NCBI GenBank assembly: GCA_044892525.1
Contig: CM097885.1
Location: forward strand, 14,758,001 to 14,822,000
DNA length: 64,000 nucleotides
Source of the DNA: Schmidtea polychroa
Taxonomy: Eukaryota
Direction of reading: 5' to 3'
The notes below the pieces were generated by a model, which was not told the origin of the DNA, made no database searches, and saw nothing but the letters and a program-made list of their open reading frames with translations. Within the stretch, counting starts at the first letter, position 1. Each line of letters starts with the position of its first letter. The translations under genes were made by a program, and so were the position numbers. Shown here piece after piece: positions 6,410-55,904 of the stretch.

Positions 6410-7771
6410 TCAAATATAATTTTATAGTCCAACAATTCATTTTACCCAGCAAAAAGATATTATTATTATGTCTGTGATAAAAGTTACTAAAAATAAAAAG
6501 TTACCTAAATAACAGCAGTGTTGGGCGCGTACAATTAAAGCAATATTGAAATCTGATTGACATGGATTTCAGGGATTTCATAAGAGAATTGCATATATTG
6601 CCATTTGACATGCCATAGACGACTCCCCATCAAATGAACAAGCAATAGATCGGAATTCATACTTTTTTGTTGAAACTTAAATTTGTAATTTGATAATTTC
6701 GAAAATTGCTATTGGACAACGGACAAAATGGTATAGTGACAATATATGATTTGTAATGGGATATTAGTTAATGCTAAACAGTCCGAATGTGGTTGTCGAT
6801 CTTGTGAGAAATGTTCTATTAAGGACTTAAAGGGTCGGATAGAGGTTTTTAATTAACGGAATACTGATTTTGAACTTTATTTGATAAGTTGATAATATAA
6901 ATTTTTTTTCTCTATAAGAATTACCCAACATTAACACTAATTGTAAATTCCCAATACAATTGCTAATATTATGCCGATTAGATTGTGGGTTATTTAGCAA
7001 GTTTATTATAATATTGTTTATTGTTTATTTTATGCTGTACAGCATTCTATTCTCATAATATGTTTTGCGCCACTTTGTCATAGAATGAAACAAAATGTTT
7101 GTGTATTCTATCCAACCTAATCGAGACATATCGGACTGAGAAGATTTTGGTCCAATCTGACACAGACATTGTCTAATAAACAAAACCTTTGCTGTAAAAT
7201 ATAGTAGAGGTAGTCAAAGCTCAAATTGTCGACAGTCGATTCCACTTAATTGGAACACATGGAACTTAGAACTTTTTGGTGAAATAATCCGGAACCAACT
7301 GCATTTTGTATGACAATTACAATATTACATTTAGGATATCTCTTTCAACATTTGGATTGGCAAAAATAATTATAAAATTGTCCCTTGCATTGCCTTCATT
7401 TCAAAGTGATATTATGTAAACAATGAAATATAAACACGTTATTGTGGAATTTGTCCATAAGAAATGTTTCAACTAAATAATCTTTAATCTATATTCAAGT
7501 GTAAAGAAGTTTAGTATTTTCTTTTACAAAACCTTTCTTAGGTCATTAAAAGTATTTGCCTAATGGATAAATCGCTACTTTTTCTTCAATGAAATTATTG
7601 TCAAATTTGGTTCATATAGATCATTCAAAATCTGCTTACAATAAAGTTCTATTATACAACCAAAGTATTTGACTTTTATACATTATATCTAGAAATAAGA
7701 ATTAGTCAAATAATGTCATTTTAAAACTCCTTGATAAAATATAATTTTCATAAATCTAGTAAATGAAACTA

Positions 7772-8603
7772 CAGTAAAACCCCCTTATAAATTACACCTT
7801 TCTTAAAGGTACAAAAAATGAAAATGACCCACAGTTGTATTTTTAAAGGATATTGACAAGGTACATCGCTTTAAAGTACACAATTTTACTTCACTTGACC
7901 TATTCTACAAACAAAGGCCCTCAAAATATCGGATGCTCTCGGGATTGATCGATTTTGTAATAATATCAAACAATATGCAATATCCGGAGAATCGGGAACT
8001 ATAGACCAAATATCAGTTGATGAATGGAAAATGACTCTAAAACAATTCTAGTAGGATACGAGCCCCGTAATATTCCTAATGATAATGAAATTCTTGATGC
8101 GATATTAGATGATTATCTAACTAATCAAGATGATGAAGCAAATTAGAATAAGAGTGATAAATTAGAAAAAGAGAGACAAGAGAAAGATGAAAAAGTTCAA
8201 ATCATAACTGATTGTAAAGCAATGCAAATGATTTCAGAACTTGTTACTTATGCTAAAACCAAGTGATTAATTGAAAAAGAGATTCACTTATTGCAGTTTA
8301 ATGAGAAAGTAAGAAAAGTGCAAGAGAAAAACAAAAGGAAAACAAAACTTGACGAATTCTAAATTAAAAAATAATTGTTGTATCCTTTATATTTAATTTT
8401 TATCTATCTTTTCATGACTGAAACAATTTATTTGCTAGAATTCTAAACTTCACGACATTTACTATATATATAAATTTCTACAATTTTTATTGAATATTGT
8501 GTATCAAACTTTTTTATTTTTCAATATTTCTCTTATAAGTACACCTACCTTTAAGAAGTACACCCGAAGAAGAATTTTTTTCAAATAAGGTGTACTTTAT
8601 ACG
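7772..8603 (+). mobile_element. Tigger/pogo deletion derivative, copy A (right TIR truncated)
   Basis: TA|CAGTAAAACCCCCTTATAA left end; near-identical to 41128-42022. Confidence 0.88.
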
Positions 8604-12207: not shown

Positions 12208-12773
12208 CCTCCCTCTACCTAAAACCTCTCATGATACACGGAGTACTAAAATGGGGTCATATTTGACCCCAATCGTTTCTTGTTTTTAAACATGTTATTA
12301 AGGTTCCTAAATCGAAAGAAATGATTAAAAATTATACTCAGGGACTTTAAAGCTTCATTTTCAAATATTCAAATATTTATATTTATGATAGGAAAAACAA
12401 AATGTAATAGAAAGAAATTAATGGAAACAAATAATTAAACATTACAGTTCGAACAAGTTGTTACATTGGATTCTGTATGTTCAGGGCAAATTTATGCAGA
12501 GCAAAACGGACATTTGGTGTCTTTCGACCTTGGGCAAAATGAACAGTGATTTCTTTTCCCCTTTCCCGAATTAGCTGGTATTGGTGGTGATACCATAAAT
12601 GACCCCAAACACTTAAAAACGCCATAAGTAGTAAAATAAAACAGGAATCCCATTGGAACTTCTTGTAAATGTTTTACACATCATTTCTGCATAAATTTAA
12701 CCTGTAGTTTAGGAATTATTGCAAAATTTAATATTCTGGGGTCATTTCTGACCCAATTTCAGGCCCAGGAAGG
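12208..12773 (-). mobile_element. piggyBac deletion derivative
   Basis: TTAA|CCT...AGG|TTAA ends, subterminal GGGGTCA...TGACCC palindromes, and a minus-strand Cys-rich C-terminal relic (HCSFCPRSKDTKCPFC...CPEH...CSNC). Confidence 0.85.
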
Positions 12774-13590: not shown

Positions 13591-13670
13591 CTATCATATT
13601 TGAAAAGCAAATTAGTAGATTTTTAAAGATTTTTCAAGAGGTTAAAAATAATTTCATATATAATAATTAC

Positions 13671-13835
13671 CTGCTTAATGTGACCATCTAACGATAAATG
13701 AGAGGTTTTCATGTAATTATTTATCTGGTTTGGAGTTTCATTTGACTGCTGCGGTTCACTGGATTTATATATATTCGTATTATCACATGTTTTATTGATT
13801 TGTGCAATTAATTTCACATCATTATTACAATGAGC
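13671..13835 (-). CDS. ncor: NCoR/SMRT exon 13 (CoRNR-like LSLDGHIKQ)
   Basis: TTTCAG|GCT acceptor; the motif resembles NCoR1 ID2 ITLADHICQII; donor CAG|GTAATT. Confidence 0.78.
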
Positions 13836-13880
13836 CTGAAAAAGTCATCTAAAATCAGAAAATCAGCTCTGTAGAATTAC

Positions 13881-14150
13881 ATTTTTGTCTGTAATTGAAT
13901 TGAGGATATTTGCTGCGGTAACCACTTTACGCTTTTCTGTTGTCTTCTCGGTGTCATCCTCACTTGAATCGTCGATAATTATTTTATTTTTCCCATGATC
14001 AGATTCGGCTATATCACAGTCTTTGGAAATTACTGTTTTTAAAAATTGATTTTTTTTGGAACAAAAACTATTTTTTTGAGATCGGAAAACCTTTTGATCT
14101 GTCACTTCGGGAGGTGGCATTTTTAATCTTGAATCAGTCATAAAGTTTTT
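13881..14150 (-). CDS. ncor: NCoR/SMRT exon 12 (CoRNR-like VVTAANILNSIT)
   Basis: TTTTAG|AAA acceptor; the motif resembles NCoR1 ID3 ITAANFIDVII; donor AAT|GTAATT, then a 45-nt intron. Confidence 0.8.
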
Positions 14151-14197
14151 CTAAAAACCAATCAATGTAAATTTGGAATTTCAATTAAATATTCCAC

Positions 14198-14419
14198 ATT
14201 TCCATTGTAAGATGATTTTGAAGCTAAACCAGCTTTGGAGCGATTTTCACTTTTCAAATTTCTATCCTTAATATAAGCATACATTTGAGAAGCTTCACTA
14301 CTTGTTCGAGTTCTTTGTGAATCGGATCGATTTCGGAACTCATCGGTATATGGTTCGACTTCCTCTTCATAAAGTTTACTGACACGGTCAATGAAAAAAT
14401 CTGATGTTTTGGTCATTAC
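14198..14419 (-). CDS. ncor: NCoR/SMRT exon 11
   Basis: ATTAG|GTA acceptor, coincides with ORF 14162..14416; donor AAT|GTGGAA, then a 47-nt intron. Confidence 0.75.
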
Positions 14420-14659
14420 CTAATTATTGTTTCGTTAGACGACGAATTTCAAAAAGTTAACTCACATTAGTATTTTTCAAATTCTCACTGATATATGGAT
14501 CGATGAAAGTGGATGTCGATGGATTTTCTATAAATTATTCATTAGATCAAATCGGAAAGGTTGAGAATTTGAAAAACGTTTAAAGGATATTTTGAATCAA
14601 TGCAATTTTTAACTATTTCTATTTACATTTTACTTCAAAAACAATTTTTAACACGTAAC

Positions 14660-14810
14660 GACAATGAGAATTTTTTCATTTCTGCTTTGTGAGACAAACG
14701 CTAATAAAAGAAGAGGGTGCTCGGGGTGTTACAAGAAGTTAAGCAATGAACATGGACGTACTACTGGCACTACGGATTGCAATACTGATATACCTGCATT
14801 GACGATATTG
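14660..14810 (+). mobile_element. piggyBac-like transposase C-terminal relic
   Basis: KRRGCSGCYKKLSNEHGR...TTDC resembles PGBD-type Cys-rich tails; no ends identified. Confidence 0.4.
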
Positions 14811-17800
14811 AAAATTTTTTTTATTCAAATACTTTGTATAATTTCCTAAAAATATTTCGAATGTATTTTGCTAAAAAAAATTTCATTAAATTTCGAATTT
14901 TTCATAAAAATAATTGGTAGTAGGCATTGCTATATCATAACTATATCATAACAAGCATTTAGGAATATTTCATTTTTGCGTACTGTTGAATAACTATATA
15001 TTTTTTTATATTATTCCAAGTTCCATATTTGTTAACATCAGTGTTTTTAGTGTTTTTCATTTAAACGAACACGCGAAACACAATTTTGAGTAATCGGCTT
15101 AAAGAAGAACATGATATTAGAATAAAAGAATATTTCATTTTAGCCTATTTCTTTGATCAGAATTCGTGAAAAAAATGCCACAATACCGGCGTTTTTGCAA
15201 ACCCTAACTGCCACAAGCCGAACAAGACAGGTCAACATTCGTTGTTCCAAATACTTAAACCAATACTGTATCACCTGCTTCAAAAGGCTTCATAAAATAT
15301 GTGGTTAATTTTTCAATTATATTTGTTGTTTATGATCCTAATTTTTTTTGTCAAATGTGAATAAACATTGTCCCACGTGGTCTATAAAGTGTGAGTCACA
15401 TGATGATCTTAGTGTTAAGAGGATAAAACTCAAAGTTTAATTATCCCATAAAAAATTTCTATTTCAAAGTTTAGGTAAAATATTTTCATCTTTGAAAATC
15501 ATTGGGAAAAGATCATTTGAAAAGACTGGGATATTCCTAACAACTAGAAAATTAAGTTAAGTACTATGCTATCGTTTTCAATAAAAGAACTAAAAAGTCA
15601 GCCCAATATTTATTAGTGAAAGAAGAAATTGGCGAAGCGAATTTCGTGGAAATAGTTCTCGGAGTTATTAATCATATAAATTCTAAAGACGACATCTCTG
15701 ATAAAAACTGTAAAGTCACTAATTTTACTGTAAAAGTTACAGGAAAGACCTACCTCAGCGAAAAATCTTGTGCTATCCTTGTGCTAACAGAGAGCTGGAA
15801 AATTGTCTGTCTCCAGACTGAAATAATATATTTTAGCAAAGAGGACAGAAAATGCGAAAATTCCTAAGTAAGAAACGGGTTCAGGAAATGATGATATTGT
15901 TCGACCAAAAAAAGCTCTCGCTTCACTGAAAAATGAGTTTGAATTAAATTAGCACAGAAATTGTTTGTTTTAAAAAGTTTTCGGAACGCATCTCTTCATT
16001 TTATATTGGCTCTTAGTCTTCTATAACACAGATACACACAACACGTAATCTACCATATTATCTTTTATTTTTTGTCACCTTTAATCAGTTTTCTATTTTT
16101 GATATTTCAATCATTTTCAATATGGCAAAAGATCAAAAATTAATTTTCTCTGCAACACAACTTCACTTTTGATTTTTTCCCTCATGAAAATCAATAAAAT
16201 ATCAACAAAAATTTTATTAGAATTAAAAATTTTTTAAAATGAATATAATATAATATCAAAATGATGAAAATTTAAAAAAATTACTTTGAAAAGGAATATT
16301 GTTTGATTTCGAACTAATAATACTATTGATGGGGCCATGATTGATCATCTGAGCAGTGCAAAAATCTTTCATTAAGATTTTTCTATTAAATGTTGAATTG
16401 AGCTTTATTGACTTATCAACATTTTTCATCTGCGATAATTAGAATGATCTTAATTTAATTTTTTACATTTTTAACAAATATGAGACACTCCATAAAGCAA
16501 TTCCAAGAAACATAATGATATCTAGTGCATAGACTGACTAAAATGCTCCCGATAAGAGCCAAATAAGCCCAGAACAAGTCTGTCATTAGAAATTGCATCA
16601 CTTTAAAACTTTATCTTGTTCTATAAGTCACCTGAAACCAAAAACCATTTGAATTTAATAGGCTACATTAAAAATTGCGCTTGTTTTGGAAATTTGCTAC
16701 ATTACTCGATACCATGGATATTAAAACCATTGTTTACGCTTTTTATTTGTTATCATCGGCCACACGGGCGGTCCCTTGTCATGTTCTAGATAACTAATAT
16801 CGATCAAGAATGAATCTATATTATTTTTCTACGATACGTTACGTAGACATACTGTTTGCTACACGGTAGTGTAGGCCAGACTTGTATACATCGGAACGTG
16901 ACGCTTTATTTAACCCTTTGCAAACATTTTTTTGGAACATTTGGCATGCAAAGTAACGACTAGAATCTTGATACGGGTGACGCCTGCTTCTGTCTGCGAG
17001 AAAAACTGGTTAACATTTGACTTTGCCTACACGAAAAAGCGAAAACGTATGCAGTGAAAGAGAGGGGTATGAGATGATGTGTGTTGTGCATGCAAATCTT
17101 CGCCTAAAGGAAAAGCTAGAGAATATAAATTATATGGAGGAAAGTATAGGGTTGTCAGATCAATCAGATTGTGATAGTAATTTTTAGTGATATGTAGCGT
17201 TTTAAAGTTACTATTAAATGTTCTTAGTTAGCTTGATCTGCTTAGTTTAATAACTTAATTACACCAACACTGTTCGACACTATTAAAAGATATATTTCAA
17301 ATTAACGAGGCCTGGCCGCTCACTTAATGCTAACAAGGGGCTTCCTTATTAATTCTGGCATCTTTAAACATTATAAATTAATAAAACCAAACTTTTGATT
17401 TGTTCCAAAGAATTATTAGTTGTGACCTGAAAGGATATGATTTTAAATAATAGTGCTTCGACGCTCTTAAAACAATGACAAAATACAAAACCAATGTGAT
17501 AATCTATAAATAATTCTAAATAAACAACATTGCATGAAATGAAAGTAAATATAATTAATAAAAGATAACTTGAAAAAGTCTATTATTATTTGTTGTTATA
17601 GCAATAACGCTTTCAATAACAATACCAACATCTCTCTTATTTGCAAATTTATACTGATAATATTCAGATTTGAAATTCATAATATTTTACAAAGAGAAAG
17701 AATGATTATTCACGTTATTCTAATGAAACGCGTTAAATCAATTTAGATGCTAAATTTGAAATTATTTAAATTAAAATCAATGATTTCACTGAGGGACATC

Positions 17801-19354
17801 AATCAGAATTACTTCAAATATAGATTTATATGAAATGGAATAAGGTACGTAGGTCACCTAGAATGGAAAAGAAAATATATGTATCCAGTTACTCATTATT
17901 GCTTTTATTTGCTCAAATTTACTAAGAATATAAATCTTTTTTAAATAAGTAAAGAAACGAAATATCAGAAAAATTAAATAATTTTCATTTTCATAATTTT
18001 TCAAAATCAATAATGAAGAATTTTCAATTATATGACAAGCAATCAATAAAATGATTAAGGATAACCACAAATTTGCCATACAGCCTTTATCAAGTCTTAC
18101 TCGACCAATCTTTATTACACGCAGAAAGGAGAATTGTTTAGATCAATTTCATTTTAGTTTAAAAATCGATAAAAGTCACAAAGTTGAATTTTTGACGGAA
18201 GTCTTGAAGACTAGATTTTGTAAAGAATTTTTATATACTACTAATTTTAATGAGACTTAAGAAAATAGAAAAATAAAGCTGATTATAATTTTTCAGAATT
18301 GTAACTAAAATTTTACTATCTGACAAAAATTTCCCAATGTCCTTATTTTATAATCAAATAAATATTTTAAGATTTATTTTTCTAATTTCAACATTATTAT
18401 GAAAATTATTAACATTAAAAAATATTTTAAAACTTTATAATTAATGAAAAATATAACTTTTAAATAACCAACTGCTTATAATGTGTGTTCTTGGTGCACA
18501 TAATTATTGAGAGCGGGTGTAACACGTAACAACTATATAAAATACACAAAAAGGGCAAAAATCGTGCAAATTTTAAATTATTAAAAAAATTCAATTTATG
18601 GATATTTCAAGTGCTTTATCACATTTAGATTTTCCACGAATAAGAGAGTAACAAAGAGGAGCAATGTAAATTATAATTGAAATATTAAAGTTAAAGTTAA
18701 ATATTTTTAGGTTTAAAATTGACAAAATAAAGATTGATCGAGAAGTCACGGAACGGAGAGAAATTTACTACAATCACACAAGAATAATGTTGTAAATAAA
18801 AGTTCAATAAAACTTACCTTTTTGAAAATAATGCATAAATGCGATGAAATTCATAATAAACTCGACAATTTTACTTTTTATTAAAAATATTATTTAACAT
18901 CAAAAATTTTAAAAACTGCAAATGAATATGTACCCCATATAATACAAATAGCATTGAAGACGCATTGCTTGTTAATTAGAATAAACAAAAATTAAAAGGA
19001 TTTCCACTGTTATCGGCAAATAGATATTTTCAATATAAATAATTTGCGTATAATCGATCACTAAAAGATCAATCGAGAAATAATTGGGACTGTGTACCTA
19101 TCAACTGGGTTCGATTTAGACCTCAAACTTATCTCTTTGTTTACTTTTAATCTCCCTTCCTTTCAATTTTCACTTATCCAAACTTAGATCTATATTTTAG
19201 CACTTCATTTTCAAGTTTTATAACATGTGAAATATGGATTGTCGATAATTGTCTATGCTTTTAGTAATTGATTTTGTTCGTAACGATTTATTATTTATTA
19301 CACAAGGTTAATATTCCAATTTTAATAAATAATCAATTAGAAAAAAATTCATAC

Positions 19355-19458
19355 ACTCGAATCCTTTTTCACTTCTTGGAAAGCTGAATTTTCTCTATTG
19401 ACTGGCGGAGGATAGATATTTTTGAAATCTTCACTAATACTGTCGAGCAAAGTTGTAA
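19355..19458 (-). CDS. ncor: NCoR/SMRT exon 10 (LTTLLDSISEDF...KKDSS)
   Basis: CTTCAG|TT phase-1 acceptor matching the previous exon; donor AGT|GTATGA. Confidence 0.75.
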
Positions 19459-19511
19459 CTGAAGCAGATTATTTTTCTAATAACTAGTTATTAATTAGCA
19501 CCAACTATTAC

Positions 19512-19755
19512 GTTTTATATTTGATTCATCAAAATTGATTTTTTGAAAAATGGAATGATTATCGAAAATTTTCAAATTTTGTTTATCGGCAAACTGTTCG
19601 CTAAGAAAATTAATCTGATCGTTTCGCTGAGGTTTATTAACTTCTCTTTTATTCTCTAAACATTGTGCTAAGCTTTGCTCAATCGAATATTCAATTGCAT
19701 CTTTTATGTGAATATATTCAGTTTTACATGGTACACTCGAACTGGGTTTTGGATC
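19512..19755 (-). CDS. ncor: NCoR/SMRT exon 9 (contains IKDAIEYSIEQSL helix)
   Basis: TTTTTAG|GAT acceptor, 81 open codons, donor C|GTAATA, then a 53-nt intron. Confidence 0.78.
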
Positions 19756-26600: not shown

Positions 26601-27904
26601 CCATGATATGTTGCACAAATTTTCATCATAAAACTATTATAATAGCAACAATTTTGTTTATTTTGGAAATAATTTGTGAAATTTGAATCAGAGCTGGTTG
26701 ATAATATTGAACTTAATATCTCGAAAATTTTGTTTTAATACATTAAATTAATGAATATAGAAATTTGTTTATTGAAATAGAACAGCATGTATAAAATATG
26801 TTCGACTTATTTGATAATTCAACAATTTTATGAAGTTTAAATACAATATACTAACAGGTTAATGAAAAAAACCAATCCCGTGCAACTTAGAAATACAATA
26901 TTGCACAATTAGATTTAAATCAGAATTCAAATTCAATTAATTTCAACCAATAAAATCACTTTAAAATATAAAATTTATATAACTATTGAAATACACACTT
27001 GATAAAGTTTCTGTGTCGAAATATGATAGTTTAGTATATGATATAACCAAGAAGCTCCTTATATGAGTGGAATACGCTCCCAACTAGACCAATTTCAATC
27101 AGTGACACTATTTAACAATATTCACATTTCGAAACGAACCAGTATTTTTTAATGAATTTTTTACATCAGTTTATAGCTATTACATTCTAACATTTATTAT
27201 TGATGAAATTCAATTATCTTCAAAATCTAATTGGAATGCTAATAATGGAAAAATTGACAAATTTAATTTAACAAATCCAGAAATTTCGTACTAAAACAAA
27301 TTCTCCAATTTTACATTATACAGGGTGATTAATGAGTCTCCGTGTTTGTCACTGGTAATGTTCTGCTTCAATAAATGTTAATCGTGACGTAAGAAAATAA
27401 ACAAATCAATAAATTCACCCTGAACCGGAAATTTCAATGCAAGTAAAGGTATTTATGACTAGCACAGCTAGAGCAATTCGGGAGTATGAAGAAAGATACG
27501 AGCGGGAAGCACCTGGTTAAAAGAGAGCTTACAGATAAGACATAAGTCAGGAAGGCCATCAGATGAGAATCTCAAGAATGAAGTGATTCACTATGTCTTA
27601 GAACACAACGAAACCACAAATCAGAGACGAACGGCTACGGATATTGGAATATCCCAATCAACCGTTCACAGAATCCCGAGAAAAGAAAATATCCGTCCGT
27701 GGAGATATCAACTAATCCATGAAATCACCGACAAAGATTGCAATTCGTGAATTTATGAAGTGTGCTTACGAGAAGGACGCAATATTGAAAGTAGTATGTT
27801 ATGGGCCATCTAGACCATGGGCCCTCTGGACCACATACCCCTCCCCCCCGGGAAAATTTTTTTTTTTAAAAATAAAAGGTCAAGGTCAATTATTTTTTTT
27901 TTTA

Positions 27905-28460
27905 ATTAATTGGTCCAGCGGGCTCACACTTTTTTTCATCCCAAAAATTAATGTTCCCACCAACGGATTTTATTGGACGATACCTCATCTTAAAGCTCAG
28001 TCCAAGACCTTTCGAATGAGCTATAGGTATCTGATATATCTTTAATAGTTTTAATGTTATTAACATTTGATGACCACCATCTTTTCAAAGTTAAATTATT
28101 ATTATTTTTCAAAATATTATTAATTGGTCCAGCGGGCTCACACTTTTTTTCATCCCAAAAATTAATGTTCCCACCAACGGATTTTATTGGACGATATCTC
28201 AACTTAAAGCTCAGTCCAAGACCTTTCGAATGAGCTATAGGTATCTGATATATCTTTAATAGTTTTAATGTTATTAACAATAGATGACCACCATCTTTTG
28301 AAAGTTAAATTATTATTATTTTCCAAAATATTATTAAGTGATCTGGCGGGCTCCTACTTTTTTCCATCCCAAAAATTAATGTTCCCACCAACAGATTTTA
28401 TTGGACGATACCTCATCTTAAAGCTTAGTGCAAGACCTTTCGAATGAGCTATTAAAGGTA
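27905..28460 (+). repeat. 214-bp tandem repeat (~2.6 units), left Polinton arm
   Basis: Equivalent motifs at 27912, 28126 and 28340. Confidence 0.95.
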
Positions 28461-28511
28461 TCATCATCATTAATATTAACAAAGAGAATGACTCCCCCCA
28501 ATGACTCACCC

Positions 28512-28902
28512 AACGATGCCTAATATTTTTAGAACGATGCCTAATATTTTTAGAACGATGCCTATTATTTTTAGAACGATGCCTAATATTTTTAGAACGA
28601 TGCCTAATATTTTTAGAATGATGCCTAATATTTTTAGAATGATTACGTCATAATTTTAGAATGATGCCTAATATTTTTAGAACGATGCCTAATATTTTTA
28701 GAATGATTACGGCATAATTTTAGAACGATGCCTAATATTTTTAGAATGATTACGTCATAATTTTAGAACGATGCCTAATATTTTTAGAACGGTGCCTAAT
28801 ATTTTTAGAACGATGCCTAATATTTTTAGAATGATGCCTAATATTTTTAGAATGGTGCCTAATATTTTTAGAACGATGCCTAATATTTTTAGAACGATGC
28901 CT
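28512..28902 (+). repeat. 20/21-bp minisatellite (GATGCCTAATATTTTTAGAAC)n, left Polinton arm
   Basis: Directly visible, with GATTACGTCATAATTTTAGAA variants. Confidence 0.97.
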
Positions 28903-30750
28903 CGTTAAGATGGTAATATATGATTTTTAAGGGGGTTTTTAAAATGCTAGAAATATTTGGTGAGGGATCGGTTAATGTTTTGAATATTTATATATTCTTA
29001 TTGGTAAAATATCAAATTTTGAAGGGAAATAGTCAGCTGTGAATAGTTCCTGTGAAATTATATCGTTTTAGAGGTTGCACAGTAATTTATGTTTCAGAAC
29101 CAGTTTTAATTAATTATCCACGGTTTTATTAATGGTTAATGATCAATTTACTTGTTTTTGACAATGAGAAATTTGAAATCTTTAGAATTAATTGATATCA
29201 ATGGTTATTGCTTTAAATTATTTTTATTTAAGAAGTTATTTTATTCATTTTGGGGATATCGTTGACAAAGCTTGAGAAATATTAACTTAAAAGAATTGGA
29301 AAACAACTAAAGAAAAATGATCTTTGAAGGAAATTTATGATTTTAATTAGAAATTAAATCGGTTGAATATCTATTGAAGGAATATTGTTATCGGATGGAT
29401 AAATGATATTTTCCTAAATTACCTTATTATATTATTATTTTAATGACTAAATTAACCAATATTCATAAATTTATCGTACAAAATATCCATGTTTTGGTTA
29501 CTCAAACATCTTAAATTTCTCGCAAAGATATATTACGTCTAATGATCATCTAATTAAATTAGAAAATAATTGTTACTTTTTAATATATATTTCTAACTAA
29601 TAAGCCCCTTAATTGGATAAATGATAACCATATTTCTATTATGACTCCTTTAATTATTTTTGCCTCAAACAAATTTACTCCAAATGATAAAGAATTTAAA
29701 ATTATCAATGAATAATGACCATGTTTTCTCATATTATTAACTATTGTAACGAACATTAGATGAATAAATTAATTTTTGCTTTAAATGACTACAAAGTTAA
29801 CCAATAAATTAGTCGCTCGACATAAGTGTAAAGTTACATTTAAAATATTCACGAATTTCTGATCATCTCACTAAATTACCTAAGAATTTCTAAATGATTA
29901 ATATACCTTTGCGACATGTTGAATGTGACCAGTACCCTTGCTAGCAATACCCATAGGGGGACAGAATATTTTGTCGGATAAACTAGGAGTATATGGTCTT
30001 TATTGATATATCAAAATACTGTTATTTATAAATCAACTAAAAAATACTCAAAAATACTATATTATTTTACTGAATGATACCTTAAATGTTTTTAATATAC
30101 ATATTTCTAAAATAAATCAACAGTTCAAACCAACAACATGTATGCAAGACCACCCATTGTTAATTTATTTCCAGTGTCACATCTTTCAAGAATGCCGTGA
30201 GTGTTTAAAGAAAGCTGAGCTAAAAGAAACTTTCCAGATAACAACTCTCCTGAATGTTTTGAACAAAAATGAGCGAAATTGAGAACAAACGATTAGATGG
30301 CGATTAACTTCTGGCCACAACCCTAACAACATGAAAATTAAGATTTTAATTATTGAATTCGTTGTTTTCTGCATGGAAATACTAACAGAATATTTTTTAA
30401 TTCAAAAAATCTTCATTATAAATTTTTGAATTTAAAAAATTAAATGAAGGATATATAAGTGTACATAATATTATAATATTATATAAAATTATACTGTATT
30501 TATTAATAAATTTAGAATACATAAAATTATAATATTATAATATTTTATAAATACTATATAATAATGTTTAAATATGCTTAAATAACTAAATTGTTTAAAT
30601 ATGTTTAAATACTAAATTTAAATTATTTAAATTTAAATTAATTAAATATAATTATGATATAACTTTATTTCTTTCGTTTTAGTATCCATAAAGTAAGTAA
30701 ATAAAGAATTTACTACAATATTTTAATTATTTTACTTAGTAATGAAGAAA

Positions 30751-31003
30751 ATGAATTATATGATTATGAAGAAGATGAGTCAGACAAAATGGTGAAACAC
30801 TAAAAGACTTATGTTCTGGATTTAGAGATTTCTTATTAAAACATGAATTATATGATTATGAAGAAGATGAACCAGACAAAATGGTGAAACACTAAAGGAG
30901 TTATAGTTTTTAGATTTAGAGATTTCTTATTAAAACATGAATTATTGGATTATGAGGAAGATGAACTAAATGGTGAAACACTAAAGGAGTTATGTTCTGG
31001 ATT
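30751..31003 (+). repeat. ~92-bp tandem repeat, about 3 units, Polinton interior
   Basis: ATGAATTA..GATTATGA.GAAGATGA...AATGGTGAAACACTAAA starts at 30751, 30843 and 30937. Confidence 0.9.
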
Positions 31004-31639
31004 TTTTAAATGAATTAGCTGATTGTAGGTGTCCTTCAACATGAATGTTTACTTATCAGACTTAAATTATGTAAACTTTCTTTCAACGAATGTCAAGAAA
31101 AATGGGAAAACCGATGTTTTAACAATTAGATATTGTAAAATATTCGTTACACCTGAAGAATATTATTAATAATGTAAGACATGAATTAATTCTTTAAAAT
31201 AAATATATTATATTTAGGTATCTGTGTTTTATGGTGGGAAATGTCATTGAAAAAGTATACCACAAATAACAGTTGCCTAATAGTCAGGTAGAATTTAATT
31301 TCTGACGATAAAATGATAAATAACATCTGTAAGTTAATGGCTTTTAAATTTTAGCAATGATAGTTGACACCGCATCAGAAAACACGTCCAATTTGCAAGA
31401 TGTATTCCAAATGGCCTGATGGAGATGATAATTTTGAGATAGATTACCAGCAGAAGAGCGAGAAAAATTTGTAAATTAAATATAATAGGGTTGGGTGGGT
31501 CCTCTTTATCCCTTAATTAATATATATTTACAAGCTGATCGTCGTGGTGGGCGGTTGTAATCTAACTAGTGGGAGGCCTCTGTAAATATATATTTGTGTT
31601 AGTGAAAACATTAATTAATTTGGTTATAGTGCCAATGAC

Positions 31640-31853
31640 GCATGTATTTTGAAATTATACGTTTCGAATGTGCTGGTAGTTGACTACCCATGCTAGGCGT
31701 AATGTTCCGTACGGAAAGCTATAATGCCCAGGTTCTTCTGACCCCACTTGGGGGAGGCACAGACGACCCTTGTGGACGCGAACAAATATCCACCGTGTCT
31801 TTCAGGCACAGATATTTGGTCACTGCTCATTAGGCCTGGCAATACTAAATGCA
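31640..31853. ncRNA. Candidate structured non-coding RNA inside the Polinton
   Basis: Local GC island with many nested stems (see findings). No family recognised; expression unknown. Confidence 0.35.
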
Positions 31854-32201
31854 TAAACTTTGCCTTGTCCTCTCTTGTCTTGATTTTTATCGTTTAAATA
31901 TTAAAGTGTGTGTGATAAGTTTTATTTACTAACCTTAATAAACCATAATATGCTTTAAACTCGAAAACCCTTGTTGAGTGTGACTAGTACCCATATGAGC
32001 AATACCCATAGGGGGACAGAATATTTTGTCGGATAGACTAGGAGTATATACACCCATGTTAAACAAGGTATGTGTATATAGAATGCGTGTGTAAAATTAT
32101 TGTCAACTTCCCGTGAAGGCAAACACAGAATATTGCAAACATATAATAATTCTCTACCCCATAACTTAGTGTGTAAAAATTATTTTAGGTTTTTGACTAA
32201 T

Positions 32202-32237
<36 letters not shown>

Positions 32238-32351
32238 GTTTAATGGGTTGTATAAAAAATATTTAGGTTTTCACTAATATTGATAATAATAATTGTTAAT
32301 GGGTTGTGTGTGTATGTGTAAAAATATTTTATGTTTTTGACTAATATTTGC

Positions 32352-32391
<40 letters not shown>

Positions 32392-32984
32392 TGAAATTGT
32401 ATTTGAAAATAATTTGCGACATGTTCATTGTGAGTAGTACCCTTGTGACCAATACCCATAGGGGGACAGAATATCTTGTCGGATAAACTCGGAGTATATA
32501 TAATAATAATATTAATAATAATAATATTGATTAAAACTTTGAAAATAATTCTTTGAAAATAATACTTTGAACAATATTTGATGAAAAAGTTCCTGAAATA
32601 ATCATGAAAATGTTGAAAATCGTGAAAATATTGAAAATGTAGAAAATTATGAAAAAATTGATAATTATTAAAAAATGCAAATGATGAAAATGTTGAAAAT
32701 CCTGAAATTGACGTAGAAATTAAGTTTTATGAATAATTGCAAATAATAATAATAATAATAATAATTTTGAAAATAACATCTTCCACACGGGCGTTAATAT
32801 TTTAAAAGAAAATATTGAAAATTAAAAAATAATAATATGTAATCAACGATTTAAACAAATTATATTATTACGTATTCGATAATTAAAACAAAAAATTATA
32901 TAATCAATGATTTAAACAAATTATATAATCAACGATTTAAACAAAATTAAATTATTATGTAATCGATAATTAAAACAAAATTAT

Positions 32985-33745
32985 TAGTTCTAAAAATATT
33001 AGGCTTCGATTACGTAATAGTTCTAAAATATGTGGCATCGTTCTAAAAATATTAGTTCTAAAAATATGATGAGTCATCGTATGAGTCATCGTTCTAAAAA
33101 TGTGATGAGTCATTGTATGAGTCATCGTTCTAAAAATATTAGGCATGGTTCTAAAAGTATGACGTAATCATTCTAAAAATAAGAGGCATCATTCTAAAAA
33201 TATTAGGTATCGTTCTAAAAATAATAGGCATCGTTCTAAAAATATGACGTAATCATTCTAAAAATAAGAGGCACCATTCTAAAAATATTATGCATCATTC
33301 TAAAAATATTAGGCATCGTTCTAAAATTATGACGTAATCATTCTAAAAATATTAGGCATCATTCTAAAAATATTAGGCATCATTCTAAAAATATTAGGCA
33401 TCGTTCTAAAAGTATTAGGCATCGTTCTAAAAGTATGACGTAATCGTTCTAAAAATATTAGGCATCGTTCTAAAAATAATATGCATCGTTCTAAAAATAT
33501 GACGTAATCATTCTAAAAATAAGAGGCACCATTCTAAAAATATTATGCATCATTCTAAAAATATTAGGCATCGTTCTAAAATTATGACGTAATCATTCTA
33601 AAAATATTAGGCATCATTCTAAAAATATTAGGCATCGTTCTAAAAATACGAGGCATCGTTCTAAAAATATTAGGCATCGTTCTAAAAATATTAGGCACCA
33701 TTCTAAAAATATTAGGCATCATTCTAAAAATATTAGGCATCGTTG
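32985..33745 (-). repeat. 20/21-bp minisatellite, right Polinton arm
   Basis: Inverted counterpart of 28512-28902, roughly twice as long. Confidence 0.97.
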
Positions 33746-33789
33746 GGTGAGTCATTCTCTTTGTTAATATTAATGATGATGATACCTTC

Positions 33790-34340
33790 AATAGCTCATT
33801 CGAAAGGTCTTGCACTAAGCTTTAAGATGAGGTATCGTCCAATAAAATCCGTTGGTGGGAACATTAATTTTTGGGATGAAAAAAAGTGTGAGCATGCTGG
33901 ACCAATTAATAATATTTTGAATAATAATAATAATTTAACGTTGAAAAGATGGTGGTCATCAATTATTAATAACATTAAAACTATTAAAGATATATCAGAT
34001 ACCTATAGCTCATTCGAAAGGTCTTGGACTGAGCTTTAAGATGAGGTATCGTCCAATAAAATCCGTTGGTGGGAACATTAATTTTTGGGAAGAAAAAAAG
34101 TAGGTCCCCGCTGGATCACTTAATAATATTTTGAATAATAATAATAATTTAACGTTGAAAAGATGGTGGTCATCAATTGTTAATAACATTAAAACTATTA
34201 AAGATATATAAAATACCTATAGCTCATTCGAAAGGTCTTGGACTGAGCTTTAAGATGAGGTATCGTCCAATAAAATCCGTTGGTGGGAACATTAATTTTT
34301 GGGAAGAAAAAAAGTAGGTCCCCGCTGGATCACTTAATTA
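33790..34340 (-). repeat. 214-bp tandem repeat, right Polinton arm
   Basis: Equivalent CTGG motifs at 33897, 34111 and 34325. Confidence 0.95.
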
Positions 34341-34767
34341 AAACAAAAAATTTAATTTAAAAAATAAATGACCTTGACCTTTTATTTAAAAAAAAATTTT
34401 CCCGGGGGAGGGGGGGGGAGGGGGGGGGGGTATATGTGATCTGGCGGGGACATGATCTGGCGGGGACACATCATACTACTATTGAATATCTTGTGTAATG
34501 TTACTTTCTATGGTATATATACTTCTTTTCTTCAATTCAAAGTGTTTCATTACTTTACAAAGAGAGACAGAAACTTATGGATCACCCTGTATATAGTATC
34601 AATTTCACTCTGCAATATCCAATATTTCAATCTATAAATAACACCATAAATGCACTGTCGAAAAATGTTAATTTCTTCAGAGAATTTTTAATAACATAAA
34701 ATGAAATGAAATAATTCCAGTTGAATAATTCATAATAATATTATTTTCAAAAAGATTTTTGACTTAC

Positions 34768-36721: not shown

Positions 36722-36775
36722 CTAAACATGAAATTACAGAATGAAATATTGCAAATGAATGTAATTATTTTTAAC

Positions 36776-37248
36776 TCTTTGCTGTCGCTCGGCTTGTACA
36801 CGTCGCCTACGAGCGTTCTTTTTAACGAGAGTTTTGTAGTTTGCTGTCTTTTTCGTTAGATAATAATACTGAATACAATCGGAAACAGATTTATTTTGAA
36901 GAAAAGACGCGATGCGACCGAAATTCTTGGGAGTATTCATGTATTGTTCTTTAAATGTATCCATTTCTTCTTTTGACCAATTATTTTTATAGCTTTGGAA
37001 ATTTATATGCTTAGGTTTCGGATCTTTAATAAGTCGTGCATATTCTAACAAGCCGAAATTTTTATTCCAACTTGGAAGGATTATTGGAGGATCGATGGCA
37101 TATTCTTTCATTTTTTCGTTTTCCTTGGCAGAATCATAAGGAGTATGAGATCGTTGTTGCTCCGATACATTTATCCCATTGCAATTATGACTAACACTGC
37201 GTGTATTGGTAAAACTATTTGTTCCGTTGCCATTATTTTCGTAATTAA
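36776..37248 (-). CDS. ncor: NCoR/SMRT exon 6 (deacetylase-activation domain / SANT1)
   Basis: TTTCAG|TT phase-1 acceptor; KMKEYAIDPP...WSKEEMDTFKEQYMNTPKNFGRIASFLQNKSVSDCIQYYYLTKKTANYK; followed by a 54-nt intron. Confidence 0.95.
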
Positions 37249-37305
37249 CTGAAACAAATTAAAACCAAATTCGAACAAAAAAAACAATTTAATAATTAAA
37301 AAATT

Positions 37306-37806
37306 CCCTTTCGATAAAAATATGGGGTAATTGTGTACTCCAGCGTCATTTTTTTTTGAAAATTTCCGTTAAATCTAGAACCTACCGCATTCGCCCTTTA
37401 GTTATTCCAAGTTGAATCATTTAATATAACTTTGCATCAATTTCATCACACAAAAAAAGAATCCTACTTGCATTTATCTGCTTGGGGGTACAAATTTACC
37501 CCAGTGGTAAATGTTCACTTTGTACTCGTAAAAAAGGTCGCAAATGTCGAAAAATATGTAATAAATATTTAACATTTGTGTGTAGAGAACATTCCATTAG
37601 CATTATAACATGTAAAACTTGTGATAAGTTACGTGTTACAATATGTAACAATATAAGTAATGCCCATTTTGTAAACACTTGTTTCTGTAATATATTTGTA
37701 TTTCATAGAATATATTTTATTTTTATACGTTAACGTTATTTAAAACCATTAAACTAGCAACAACATAATGAAAAAGTCTTGTGGACATGACCCGACCTTC
37801 GGAAGG
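37306..37806 (+). mobile_element. piggyBac deletion derivative
   Basis: Right end GGAAGG|TTAA, GGGGTA...TACCCC palindrome, and Cys-rich tail CSLCTRKKGRKCRKICNK...VCREH...CKTC. Left end is degenerate. Confidence 0.75.
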
Positions 37807-38954: not shown

Positions 38955-41127
38955 TACTATCTAAAAGGCAACCTTAATATATCGGAAATGATGTTCAATT
39001 TAAAATATAATGCCAAATAGTTCTATTAAAACTGGAAAAATGTAATTTTTCCAAAATGTGTTTTAAAAATCTTTTTTTGCACAAATTGTATTGATAAGTA
39101 TTTAATTTTGCATTTTTTATTAATATTATTAGTCAATTTTAAATTTTACTTTTTTTAAATAAATGCTGAAATTTAATTTTTGGTGAATGCATCTTGTAAT
39201 ATTTGGCATTGTTTCCTTTTCTAATTTGTATATTTATGTTATATTCTGAAATTTTTGTTGGTATTTCATTACAAATCAGGTTTGTTTTTCTATAATTTTG
39301 TAATTCTTAATTTATTTTTTGCTTTTTTATAGTTCCTGGGAATTGTCACTATCACCTGGTATTACCTAAAGTTTCAAATTTTTCCCACGACTTTTTAATT
39401 TTTGAACATTTGGTTTTCAGATAACATTGAAATTTTAATCTACATATTCGATATTAAAAATGAATTCTCAAAGTTTTTATATTTATAAAAATGTCTTAAT
39501 GGTAAATATATAAAATAGAATTATTTAAGCTACTCTTTGTAAAACATTCTTAATTTTTTGTAATTTTAAGTTTCATTCTAACCAGTACAAATTTTAAATG
39601 AAAAAAAACATTTAAAAAATAGTTTATAAAATTTTAATATGTTACATAATTATTGTATGATTTTTTAACTTTCTCTTACATATATCAATTCTGAATTTGG
39701 TATGGCATTTAATAAACTATTTTTTTTGTGAAAATTAAGTCAATACAAATTGGAAAAGTAGATATCTAAATTTTCTTATTTAATACTACATCCAAGCCAG
39801 TTCAGTATTTATAAATTTTTTCCGCCAAAAATATGTCACCAGTGTGCACAACACTTACGTCTTAACACAGAAAATTGTATTAGATCTGAAATGTATTTCA
39901 AAAATAAACTTCTTCAATCCCTTCAAGATCTAAAGATAATCATTCAACATGTTTTTTAATTTTCTCTATATTATATCATTGTTATCTGACCCGTCAAAAC
40001 AAAAACTTCCCCCTCTGAAAATAACGGTATTAAAACTAACACCAATGTTTTCCCCAATTGTTCTCGATAATAATTTTATGGTTTTCCTTCATTTTTCGCT
40101 GCATTAACTTACATTTTGTAGACTTCATTATGTTGCTCTACTCGCGAATTTCCATTTTAGTAGTATTCGATTTTGTCGCTTTTTTAAATTTTCTGAAAGC
40201 CTATTTAATACATTCTTTAGATGACGGCATAAATTTTGTAGAAATATTTTATAAATTATCATTTGGTAAATATTAGTTTTATTAATTTTGAGATAGTAGT
40301 CTTTCCATTGTGTAATAAGGCGATATTACACTTAATGATTTTTCTTTTCTTTTTTTATGGAAAATACAATATTCCATTCTGATTCTGAAAACATGTAATA
40401 ATATAATCTAAAACTTTAACTCACTGGTTTCAGTGGAGCATATTCCAAAATGAGAGATGGCACTTATCATCGATAAAAATTTAAATGTGGCACATTCAAA
40501 CACACTGCAGTTAAAGTGGTGACATAAATCTTTAATAAATAAATAAATATAATTAAAACCCATTAGAAAAAATGAAGAAATTAACGTTTTCATTGGAATC
40601 ATTAATATCTTATGATGTCTAAGCTCCTATAATTTCAAGAATGGAAGTTTAAAGAAAATTCCTCGTGAACGATACTTTACAGTGAATTTTGTTTGAGATT
40701 TCTAATTTTTTAGCTGTTGAAATATCTAGATTACACGCTGGCTTAGACAGATGAAAACCTATAAGATTTTTTATATGACAGACAGAAGTGCCTAAAAAGA
40801 GAAAGACTAGCACGAAACAATTAATCTGATATTTATAATTTTATAGCAACAGGAATTTTTTGCCAACGATTCTTAAATATGTTAAACATTAATATATTAA
40901 TATTTGAATTAATTTATTTTTATTAAGGCCATTTATATATTTTAATTTAGCATATTTATCTTTTGGTTTCATTTTTGATCTTTATTTCAATTCAATAATT
41001 TTCATATCAATATTTGTAATATAATGTACCTTATTGTTTTGATCTATAGCCAGGCAATTCCACTTATGATGTCATTTCCCATTTTTAAGTTTGTAACTTA
41101 CATGATAGATAATAAAATGCATCAATA

Positions 41128-42022
41128 CAGTAAAACCCCCTTATAAAGAACACCTTTCTTAAAGGTACAAAAAATGAAAAAGGCCCACATTTGTATTTTT
41201 AAAGGATATTGACTCTTTATACAAGGTACATCGCTTTAAAGTACACAATTTTACTTCACTTGACCTATTCTACAAACAAAGGCCCTCAAGATATCGGATG
41301 CTCTCGTCATTGATCGATCAGACTTTAATGCCAGTGAAGGATGATTAGATAAGTTCAAAAGTCGTCATAATATCAAACAATATGCAATATCCGGAGAATC
41401 GGGAACTATAGACCAAATATCAGTTGATGAATGGAAAATGACTCTAAAACAATTCTAGTAGGATACGAGCCCCGTAATATTCCTAATGATAATGAAATTC
41501 TTGATGCCATATTAGATGATTATCTAACTAATCAAGATGATGAAGCAAATTAGAATAAGAGTGATAAATTAGAAAAAGAGAGACAAGAGAAAGATGAAAA
41601 AGTTCAAATCATAACTGATTGTAAAGCAATGCAAATGATTTCAGAACTTGTTACTTATGCTAAAACCAAGTGATTAATTGAAAAAGAGATTCACTTATTG
41701 CAGTTTAATGAGAAAGTAAGAAAAGTGCAAAAGAAAAACAAAAGGCAAACAAAACTTGACGAATTCTAAATTAAAAAATAATTGTTGTATCCTTTATATT
41801 TAATTTTTATCTATCTTTTCATGACTGAAACAATTTATTTGCTAGAATTCTAAACTTCACGACATTTACTATATATATAAATTTCTACAATTTTTATTGA
41901 ATATTGTGTATCTAACTTTTTTATTTTTCAATATTTCTCTTATAAATACATCTACCTTTAAAAAGTACACCCGAAGAAAAATTTTTTGCTAATAGGGCGT
42001 ACTTTATACGGAGGTTTTACTG
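41128..42022 (+). mobile_element. Tigger/pogo deletion derivative, copy B (both ends present)
   Basis: TA|CAGTAAAACC...GGTTTTACTG|TA; CENP-B-type HTH relic FNASEG*LDKFKSRHNIKQYAISGES. Confidence 0.92.
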
Positions 42023-48122: not shown

Positions 48123-49985
48123 TAAGGCATCCAATCCCGGAATTTATTTGGTACCGAAATCCCGGGATTAAGATTGTCAGAATACCGGGATTCGGTGCCA
48201 ATTTTTAATTCATTTTATTTGCATAATGCGTAGCCAATTCGGTTTCGTCCTCTGAGTTATTTTTAAATTATTCTTCTTTTGCTCAGTTGACGTATATTAC
48301 ATAACATGCGCACTAGAAAATCAACTACTACTATTCGGACCATGGTCATGAAGTATGGCCGAATGATTCAGCAAAAATAAAAGCTTGAATTACTTAGCTT
48401 GCAGTCTCGGAAGAAATTCACTATCAGCTTTGACGAATGGATTTCATTCAAGAACCGTCCACATTTGAATCTAAAATAAATTTTGGAATTTAGGACTGGT
48501 TCGATTGCGTGTATCTTTGCCGGTAGAAAGCTGTATCAAACTTATTGAAAAAAAGCTGGAGTTTTTCGGATTAAATTTACACGAAAATATTGTATGCACT
48601 GTGACGGATGGTGCCGCTGTAATTGCTTTCTTGCGAGCAATAACTATGTTTAGCACATGGCATACATCTGGCGGTTGTGGATTTCCACTACAAAAAACCT
48701 GTTTCTATCTCAATTGAAGAGGTTGATGATAACGATGACAGCGATTCAGACAACGAAGGTGAATATGACGGATTTCAAGTTGTTTGCAAAGAAGATGAGC
48801 CAGAACTTACGGATGAGCATTATGTATTCATCGGTAAAGTACGGTCTGTTTCCAAGCTATTTCATCGATCTCCGACAAAAAAACGACATTCTCCAGAAAT
48901 ACATCAAAGCAGAATTCGGAAAAGAAATTCAGTTGATGATTGATGTAAAGATACGATGGAACAGTCTTCTTTCTATGCTGGAAAGTTTCCATAAAGTTAA
49001 AAACTGCATTTTAAAATCGTTGATTGATCTTGGTTCAAGTATTTCAAATGAAGAACTGAACATTATTCAAAATTTGGTAACAACACTTGAACCAGTAAAG
49101 TTAGCTGTGGAAGCACTTTGTCGTCGTTATGAAACACTGTTGTCAGCTGACACAACGATTTCATTAATGATAAATAATTTAGGCAGCAGTGACTTAGCCG
49201 TTCGGCTGAAGGAAACACTTTCACTTCGATTAAATCAACGGCGAACGAAAGTTTCAAGTTTGCTTCAATATCTGCACAAGGGCAACCAAAATTATACAGA
49301 ATTGGAGTTGATCCTCTACTAAATTTTGAACGTCTAAACAAAACGAAGATTGTTTCTATGGTTACTGGTCTGACAAAGCCACTTGATCGCAATGAGTCAT
49401 TTGAATCCGAATCGGATAGTGAGGCAGCTGAAGGAGAAGTCGAATCGCAGTTGTCCATGCAAGAGAAGCTCGCCAGAGCCGTCGGTAAAGAAATGAATTC
49501 CAAAATAATTTCCAAATCACGAACAGCGAAAGATGTAACAAACATTGTGAAAAAAGAATTGGTCATTTTCGAAGTTGAAGGAGCTAACCTTGAGAGCTGT
49601 TACGAAAATTTGAACTCAATACAAACTCAATACAAGCGCAGAACCAGAACTAGTGTTTTAGGATACGGAAAAACGGTGAAAAAAATCAGATCATCTCTAA
49701 GTGATGAGAGCAGACATTTTGACCTTATTAAGAGGATATTTCAAGACGGAAGTTAAATAAATAAATAAACAAAAAAGACTGTCAATTTGAGTTCCTCTGT
49801 TTGTACCTAATTTCATTTATTATTGTTTTAAACTGTGTTCTATTAATGGATTAAAAAATGTATGGTTTTTTAAATTTTGGATAAAAATTTTGAAATTTCG
49901 ATCAGTCCCGGTGCTGGCACCGGGATCAAAAAATTCAATACCGAAATCCCGGTTCTGGAAAAATGGTCTGGTACTGGATGCCTTA
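48123..49985 (+). mobile_element. hAT transposon with frameshifted, partly deleted transposase
   Basis: TIRs TAAGGCATCCA...TGGATGCCTTA, perfect 8-bp TSD GTTACAAT, subterminal CCGG repeats; motifs SFDEW, VTDGAA, AHGIHLAV, IDVKIRWNSLLSML. Confidence 0.95.
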
Positions 49986-55289: not shown

Positions 55290-55904
55290 AATACAAGCTT
55301 GGAGAGTAAGTCAGGAAGAGGTCAATTATCGGATTTAGACAACCAGGTGTTTCTAGTTGCTATGGAAGGAAGTTTGACCATCAAGATACTAGACGAGGAC
55401 TTCAACTAGTCAATGATCGCCGTCACCTCAAAATACTCGGCAAGATGTTGAAATTATCCGGATGTGTCCCACATGAGCTAACCCAATGTGAATTTTCGCC
55501 AATTTGCTCTAGTGAAATGAATAAAATCCTTTCTTCAACGGCTACTGATACTGGTGGAATGACAATAGTGAGTGTCAAGAGTAATGAATGCCGTTTAACC
55601 TCCACAACTATGTTTAAATACCTCAGATTGATCGCCTCTATAACCCCATTCAAGTCAAAAGAATGTGCAAAAAATAGACTTATTTCTACCGAAACCCACA
55701 CTGAAAAATCGGCAAGTAAACAAAGTCTAAGAGGACTTGAATAAATTGCGGTTGAAATCAAAGCAAATGCACAGCACAAATTGAAATTAAATAGTGATTA
55801 AGTTTCAGAATGATCATTGTAATATGTTTTGAGTGTATTTTCGAATTTTATTTTTCAATAAAAATTGTCTTTAAAAAGACCGATAATTATTTACCATCCT
55901 AACA
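55290..55904 (+). mobile_element. mariner transposase relic
   Basis: RHLKILGKMLKLSGCVPHELT (WVPHEL motif) and a mariner-like right end ...ATTATTTACCATCCTAA. Confidence 0.7.

Follow-up and report, generated by a model that had tools for sequence, protein, structure and literature searches.

A 6.7-kb gene-less element with Maverick/Polinton-type ends inserted in a decayed Tc1/mariner transposon of Schmidtea polychroa

How does a DNA element without recognizable genes come to lie, with both ends intact, inside another transposon? The question is raised by a 6691-bp element at positions 27790-34480 of a 64,000-nucleotide stretch of the Schmidtea polychroa genome (assembly GCA_044892525.1, contig CM097885.1, positions 14,758,001 to 14,822,000 of the forward strand), which we call the window. 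We favor, with a probability of about 0.55, the explanation that it is a non-autonomous Maverick/Polinton derivative. Such a derivative would have lost its genes before insertion, and a helper Maverick integrase, acting in trans on its AGTAGT ends and subterminal repeats, would have inserted it into a dead Tc1/mariner with duplication of 6 bp. The coordinates of the features are collected in Table 1.

Both ends of the element, read inward, start with AGTAGTATG, a word that occurs in the window once per orientation. Of 82 AGTAGT...ACTACT pairs in the window a single one, that of the element, is framed by a 6-bp duplication, and the probability of such a 6-mer target-site duplication (TSD) matching by chance is about 1e-3. 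A blastn comparison of the arms returned an inverted match of 1085 columns at 89.5% identity, with 651 of 705 aligned bases identical in the outer 710 bp. The insertion is real and chance is ruled out. The original prediction, made from the sequence of the window, had described a Polinton/Maverick of about 6.7 kb with intact AGTAGT...ACTACT termini, a perfect 6-bp TSD and arms longer than 1 kb, and all of these features were confirmed.

The arms are modular and 1.1-1.5 kb long each. From the tip inward they consist of two 16-bp units, a C-tract, a 214-bp unit present 2.6 times and a 21/22-bp minisatellite. The word AGGTCAAGGTCA occurs once per arm and is absent from the other 57 kb of the window; we take it to resemble a nuclear-receptor DR0 site. 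TGACGTAA was found eight times in the arms and once in the other 57 kb, and TGACTCA six times in the arms, counts that are inflated by the arm repeats. Presumably these arm words resemble bZIP and nuclear-receptor sites.

The family assignment of the original prediction held at the level of end motif, TSD length and arm length, which together point to a Maverick ancestry. PMC8097293 gives 5'-(AGT)2//(ACT)2-3' with a 6-bp TSD as the commonest Maverick end motif, with terminal inverted repeats (TIRs) of 46-1447 bp, and a similar TIR range of about 100-1500 bp is given in 10.1101/2023.08.22.554363. The element carries this end motif, ATTGAA on both flanks and TIRs within or at the top of the range. 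It differs from autonomous Mavericks, which measure 12.7-24.6 kb in the same source (PMC8097293), in its size, in the lack of any polymerase, integrase, ATPase, protease or capsid match, and in its tips, which differ from each other at 14 of 48 sites. An autonomous copy is marked by pPolB, integrase, ATPase, protease and capsid genes and a length of 13-25 kb; this element has 6691 bp, and Pfam detected none of these genes in its interior.

No Maverick gene ties the element to the family, and tandem-repeat arms are reminiscent of foldback elements. On these grounds one can envisage that the element is of the foldback type and belongs to another superfamily of DNA transposons, its arms being modular and its AGTAGT end a coincidence. 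We give this explanation very little credence. A Tc1/mariner would duplicate TA, and the end motif together with the 6-bp TSD matches the Maverick pattern exactly (PMC8097293). Ginger1 and Ginger2, which share with Mavericks a related integrase family and the possession of TIRs, have TGT ends, 4-bp TSDs and TIRs of 40-270 bp, hence below 300 bp, and the element shows none of these (PMC2836005).

The transposon that received the element spans 27321-34589, with TA on both flanks and 17 of 22 end bases alike. It shows the TA duplication, short TIRs and helix-turn-helix (HTH) type N-terminus characteristic of Tc1/mariner. Its longest frame reached Atlas scores of 0.94 to the SETMAR/HTH_48 cluster and 0.92 to the DUF4817 cluster, and its PDB match to SETMAR was weak (E 0.023). 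Since only about 570 bp remain once the insert is removed, the host lacks a catalytic domain; Pfam searches of the host pieces on either side of the junction gave no match, including to a DDE/D catalytic domain. Because the TSD lies between the two ends of the host, the Tc1/mariner came first and the Maverick-type element second. The original prediction had deduced this order from a transposase frame rejoined across the TSD. The order stands, by the TSD and the host ends, and the frame is indeed open across the insertion junction, but it is interrupted upstream by stops and frameshifts and has no Pfam match.

The interior of the element looks as if it had been non-coding for a long time. Pfam was searched with six frames of each of two stretches, which together span nearly the whole non-palindromic 4.1-kb interior, with stops written as X, and no family was found in any of the 12 frames, as expected from the earlier claim that no Polinton genes are visible; 15 interior open frames likewise gave nothing significant. 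Exact look-ups of 13 element frames and seven host-exon frames returned 0 of 20 and were uninformative, a search with the frame spanning the left junction gave no candidate, and no nested TIR element was found within the interior. For the frame of the 92-bp repeat five homologue candidates came up, none of which scored. An RZ-type zinc finger, suggested by the Cys/His spacing of the frame at 30118-30230, was rejected, with an Atlas score of 0.88 against the 0.9 mark and no true homologue.

Besides tandem and microsatellite expansions the interior carries three dispersed modules of 87 bp, direct in orientation and 83-90% alike. The original prediction had proposed the modules and a GC-richer island as structured cis elements. 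Neither part of this proposal was supported by comparison with shuffled sequences: nine of nine module folds failed to exceed the shuffles, with z from -0.6 to +0.8, and the island gave z -0.69. One 14-bp stem in the island, picked by eye, reached z -2.8 and was the sole fold at that level, all other module and island z-scores lying between -1.1 and +0.8. The single Rfam match, Metazoa_SRP, was rejected at 26.7 bits against a threshold of 70. Nothing marks interior parts as cis elements, and the relevant cis signals most likely lie in the arms rather than in the interior modules. As a separate observation, module 3 (at 32418-32445) holds AGTAGTA, the terminal word of the element, with variants at the equivalent place in modules 1 and 2, and all three modules have a GACA-8-TGTC dyad and a TATA-like GGAGTATAT at their end. 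Judged by their sequence, the modules may possibly be orphan promoters.

The copy number of the interior was approached through sequence records and read sets. A HMMER search retrieved a gene call, itself spurious, with 98% identity to an interior frame; the other three of the four matches were dropped as unrelated tandem-repeat proteins of 27-32% identity. The cluster of this gene call consists of four ENA records, whose contigs are 609-1873 bp long and which share about 550 bp of the interior. Three of them are variant: P0007 equals the window at all non-stop positions, P0005 departs from it solely in the first residues, P0002 by three substitutions and a short gap, and P0006 by three substitutions before it runs out of frame. 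For comparison, none of 12 candidate records was near-identical to the NCoR exon, an imperfect control obtained with another search tool.

The share of interior words found in a run grew with run size in the six of 20 runs labelled organism A, from 0.24 at 37 million letters to 0.56, 0.64, 0.75, 0.75 and 0.88 at 306-638 million. A two-class model fitted these shares with a squared error of 0.0025 when 22% of the words were saturated and the others low-copy, at one copy per about 150 Mb of reads, and the split was the same if run sizes were taken as contig letters (0.011). The fits assume that a word is kept once it is seen twice, which we take to be the rule, genome size was not an input, and two of the runs are possibly one data set. 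The 14 rows outside the fits comprised eight metagenome runs, descriptive or unused, three unlabelled runs and three with small shares; the four runs with shares below 0.2 (X11-X14) were given no weight. Under a strict count 5% of the stretch consists of low-complexity words, under a loose count 16%. The run shares fit about one fifth of the interior words being common to a larger family, and the 6.7-kb arrangement is probably single or few-copy.

These data bear on the suggestion of a satellite that exists in many copies, is mobile as a 6.7-kb unit and depends on the 87-bp modules and the GC-richer island as cis-acting origin, packaging or RNA signals. The likeness of the modules at three places would fit it, as would the presence of 0.25-0.30 of the interior words in four small sediment runs of one sample and the four ENA contigs, which hold module 1 with its downstream DNA. 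The run shares do not saturate, however, and a saturated one-class model of the six runs had a squared error of 0.059, about 24-fold that of the model with two classes. With modules and island that fold no better than shuffles and no Rfam family at threshold, we consider this explanation quite improbable, and the corresponding claim of the original prediction was not sustained.

The apparent low copy number of most interior words also suits a different history. In this history the insertion was that of an autonomous Maverick whose subterminal regions were long and non-coding; one in-place deletion later removed its whole gene block, and the 6.7-kb form was never mobile. The 550 bp in common with the ENA records might then be subterminal DNA that full-length copies share, and decayed copies are the rule, with 96% of vertebrate Maverick loci being decayed fossils according to PMC8097293. 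Against such a deletion, the interior contains no remnant of a known gene, and in particular no polymerase or integrase stump of the kind that an in-place deletion would often leave. It also combines repeat expansions and three modules with arms and a TSD that are little decayed. On balance we regard the in-place deletion as somewhat unlikely.

Several observations weigh against a derivative that was already gene-less when a helper placed it. Besides the prevalence of fossils just mentioned, most of the interior is not high-copy by the run shares, and a single decayed copy fits these as well. The variation among the ENA records could be allelic, at this one locus. Pattern scans of three contig collections with the module, the 214-bp unit and the tips gave no matches in eight of eight scans (four viral, two metagenome and two prokaryote-genome). 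Neither a further full copy nor a helper or an empty site came to light, the host genome itself not having been searched.

A non-autonomous Maverick derivative is of a known kind and as such ordinary, and non-autonomous Polintons have already been named in print. In Repbase usage 'N1' denotes a non-autonomous family. The name of zebrafish Polinton-1N1_DR appears in PMC9341505, and, judged by its name, it would resemble the element as a gene-poor derivative with Polinton ends and presumed movement in trans. A point of difference is that the copy number of the element seems low. Another precedent is offered by polB-less polintons of butterflies, which are reported to have stayed mobile (10.1101/2025.02.07.637071). 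Like the element they are defective, have intact TIRs and were apparently mobilized without a polymerase of their own; they differ in that they keep other polinton genes and carry transposable-element cargo, whereas the element has no detectable gene (10.1101/2025.02.07.637071).

The one oddity of the element, and the sole lead worth a genome-wide check, is a motif that differs between its ends. The first nine bases of the two tips are identical and 14 of the next 39 differ. The GC-rich motif of the tip recurs, inverted, at the head of every 214-bp unit, and in these heads 23 of 87 sites differ between the arms, against 14 of 461 in the remainder of the units. These counts are not independent, units 1 and 2 within an arm being near-copies (6 and 3 of 214 sites differ, as compared with 11-16 between arms). 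Because the arms differ by only 3% outside the motif, i.e. are 97% alike there, and both ends and the TSD are intact, the insertion appears fairly recent. Use of the arm divergence as an age clock was rejected because the differences are patterned. Within an arm the motif differences are mostly coherent: the left tip motif agreed with its own first head at 14/18 positions and with that of the other arm at 13/18, the right tip motif at 14/18 and 11/18, respectively, and two motif positions changed on both sides. In the predicted fold the tip is paired with the head at either end, with z-scores of -4.2 and -3.6 on the right and a weak -1.4 and -1.0 on the left.

The third unit heads belong to the opposite type or are mixed, the order of heads being A-A-B on the left and B-B-A on the right. 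One inversion that exchanged the inner halves of the arms does not explain this order cleanly and was rejected, the third left head being itself a mosaic. A single TSD flanks the element on both sides, so its ends were already unlike when it inserted. The unlike ends are most plainly explained by recombination between two subfamilies, and selection cannot be told from descent with two sequences. Alternatively, a small family might have unequal ends as a trait that is stable and functional. Each end would then carry its own version of the GC-rich motif, altered in concert at the tip and the first 214-bp unit head, and could fold back on itself or bind a protein of its own; we consider this unlikely. 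In the main texts of a literature that comprised few subscription papers and Repbase reports, we found no paper on left-right motif differences in Maverick arms and nothing on non-identical adenovirus ends.

Table 1. Features of the element, its Tc1/mariner host and the NCoR surroundings (positions in the window).
Feature	Position	Strand	Remarks
Gene-less Maverick/Polinton-type element	27790-34480	.	6691 bp; ends, TSD, arms, gene search
TSD, left copy ATTGAA	27784-27789	+	6-bp perfect duplication
TSD, right copy ATTGAA	34481-34486	+	6-bp perfect duplication
Left tip	27790-27837	+	AGTAGTATG, then two 16-bp units of left-type GC-rich motif
Right tip	34433-34480	-	AGTAGTATG, then two identical 16-bp units of right-type motif
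AGGTCAAGGTCA, left-arm copy	27877-27888	+	
AGGTCAAGGTCA, right-arm copy	34369-34380	-	
Left-arm 214-bp tandem unit	27905-28452	+	x2.6; every unit head bears the GC-rich motif, inverted with respect to the tip
Right-arm 214-bp tandem unit	33791-34338	-	x2.6
Left-arm 21/22-bp minisatellite	28512-28902	+	x18.5; TGACGTAA in some units
Right-arm 21/22-bp minisatellite	32985-33744	-	x29.5 (33116-33744) plus degenerate inner units with TGACTCA
Interior stretch shared with four short ENA contigs	29911-30456	+	P0002, P0005, P0006, P0007; spurious gene calls
87-bp module 1	29908-29994	+	no significant fold
87-bp module 2	31963-32049	+	no significant fold
87-bp module 3	32413-32499	+	no significant fold
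92-bp tandem unit	30751-31004	+	x2.8; protein-like reading, possible decayed small open reading frame
GC-richer island	31480-31900	.	overall fold not significant; one 14-bp stem at about 31519-31596
Host Tc1/mariner, left part	27321-27789	+	TA and CAGGGTG end; HTH-coding region decayed, its longest frame at 27490-27750
Host Tc1/mariner, right part	34487-34589	+	ends CACCCTG, then TA
NCoR exon with first SANT domain	36737-37258	-	upstream of the element in gene direction; E 3e-20 to NCoR2
Candidate downstream NCoR exons	19352-19755, 13626-14419	-	within 13626-19755; tentatively assigned from same-strand exon-like frames

The element and its host likely lie in an intron of NCoR, as had been predicted. 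The SANT exon on the upstream side is established. The downstream side is drawn from exon-like frames, for which Pfam gave no support and PDB searches no confirmation; one of them contains what we take to be a CoRNR-box-like motif, which PDB searches did not confirm either.

Remains of other mobile elements were observed elsewhere in the window. An element of about 880 bp that starts with TACAGTAAAACCCCCTTATAA is present in two copies, 92% alike, at 7770-8603 and 41126-42010, and is probably a non-autonomous Tc1/mariner- or pogo-like element. At 58925-61056, fragments of the reverse transcriptase and integrase of a long terminal repeat (LTR) retrotransposon lie between two identical 96-bp direct repeats, which have no TG...CA ends and no evident TSD. 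Two long frames at 48654-49756, without a Pfam match, presumably represent a decayed hAT-type transposase. We take a frame at 55310-55797 with a WVPHEL-like mariner motif to be a further decayed mariner, and Cys-rich frames at 37425-37733 and 12464-12680 presumably resemble piggyBac C-terminal domains.

The unlike ends of the element touch on how Mavericks replicate. The standard model has a single-stranded intermediate with paired TIRs (PMC4196379, PMC4046053), and the terminal AGT repeat is thought to be used by Mavericks for jumping-back protein priming (PMC8097293). The element may have been copied in this manner or may simply have been cut and pasted. The left-right motif difference offers a direct sequence test of this panhandle model: ends that pair during replication are expected to be alike and these tips are unlike, which would fit end pairing poorly. 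If the asymmetry is functional, the element would do without the end-to-end panhandle or evade it, and either gene-less Mavericks would move by integrase alone or Maverick ends would be left-right specialized. If the element moved more than once, its retained parts would bound the cis requirements of Maverick integration, which so far have been inferred rather than measured.

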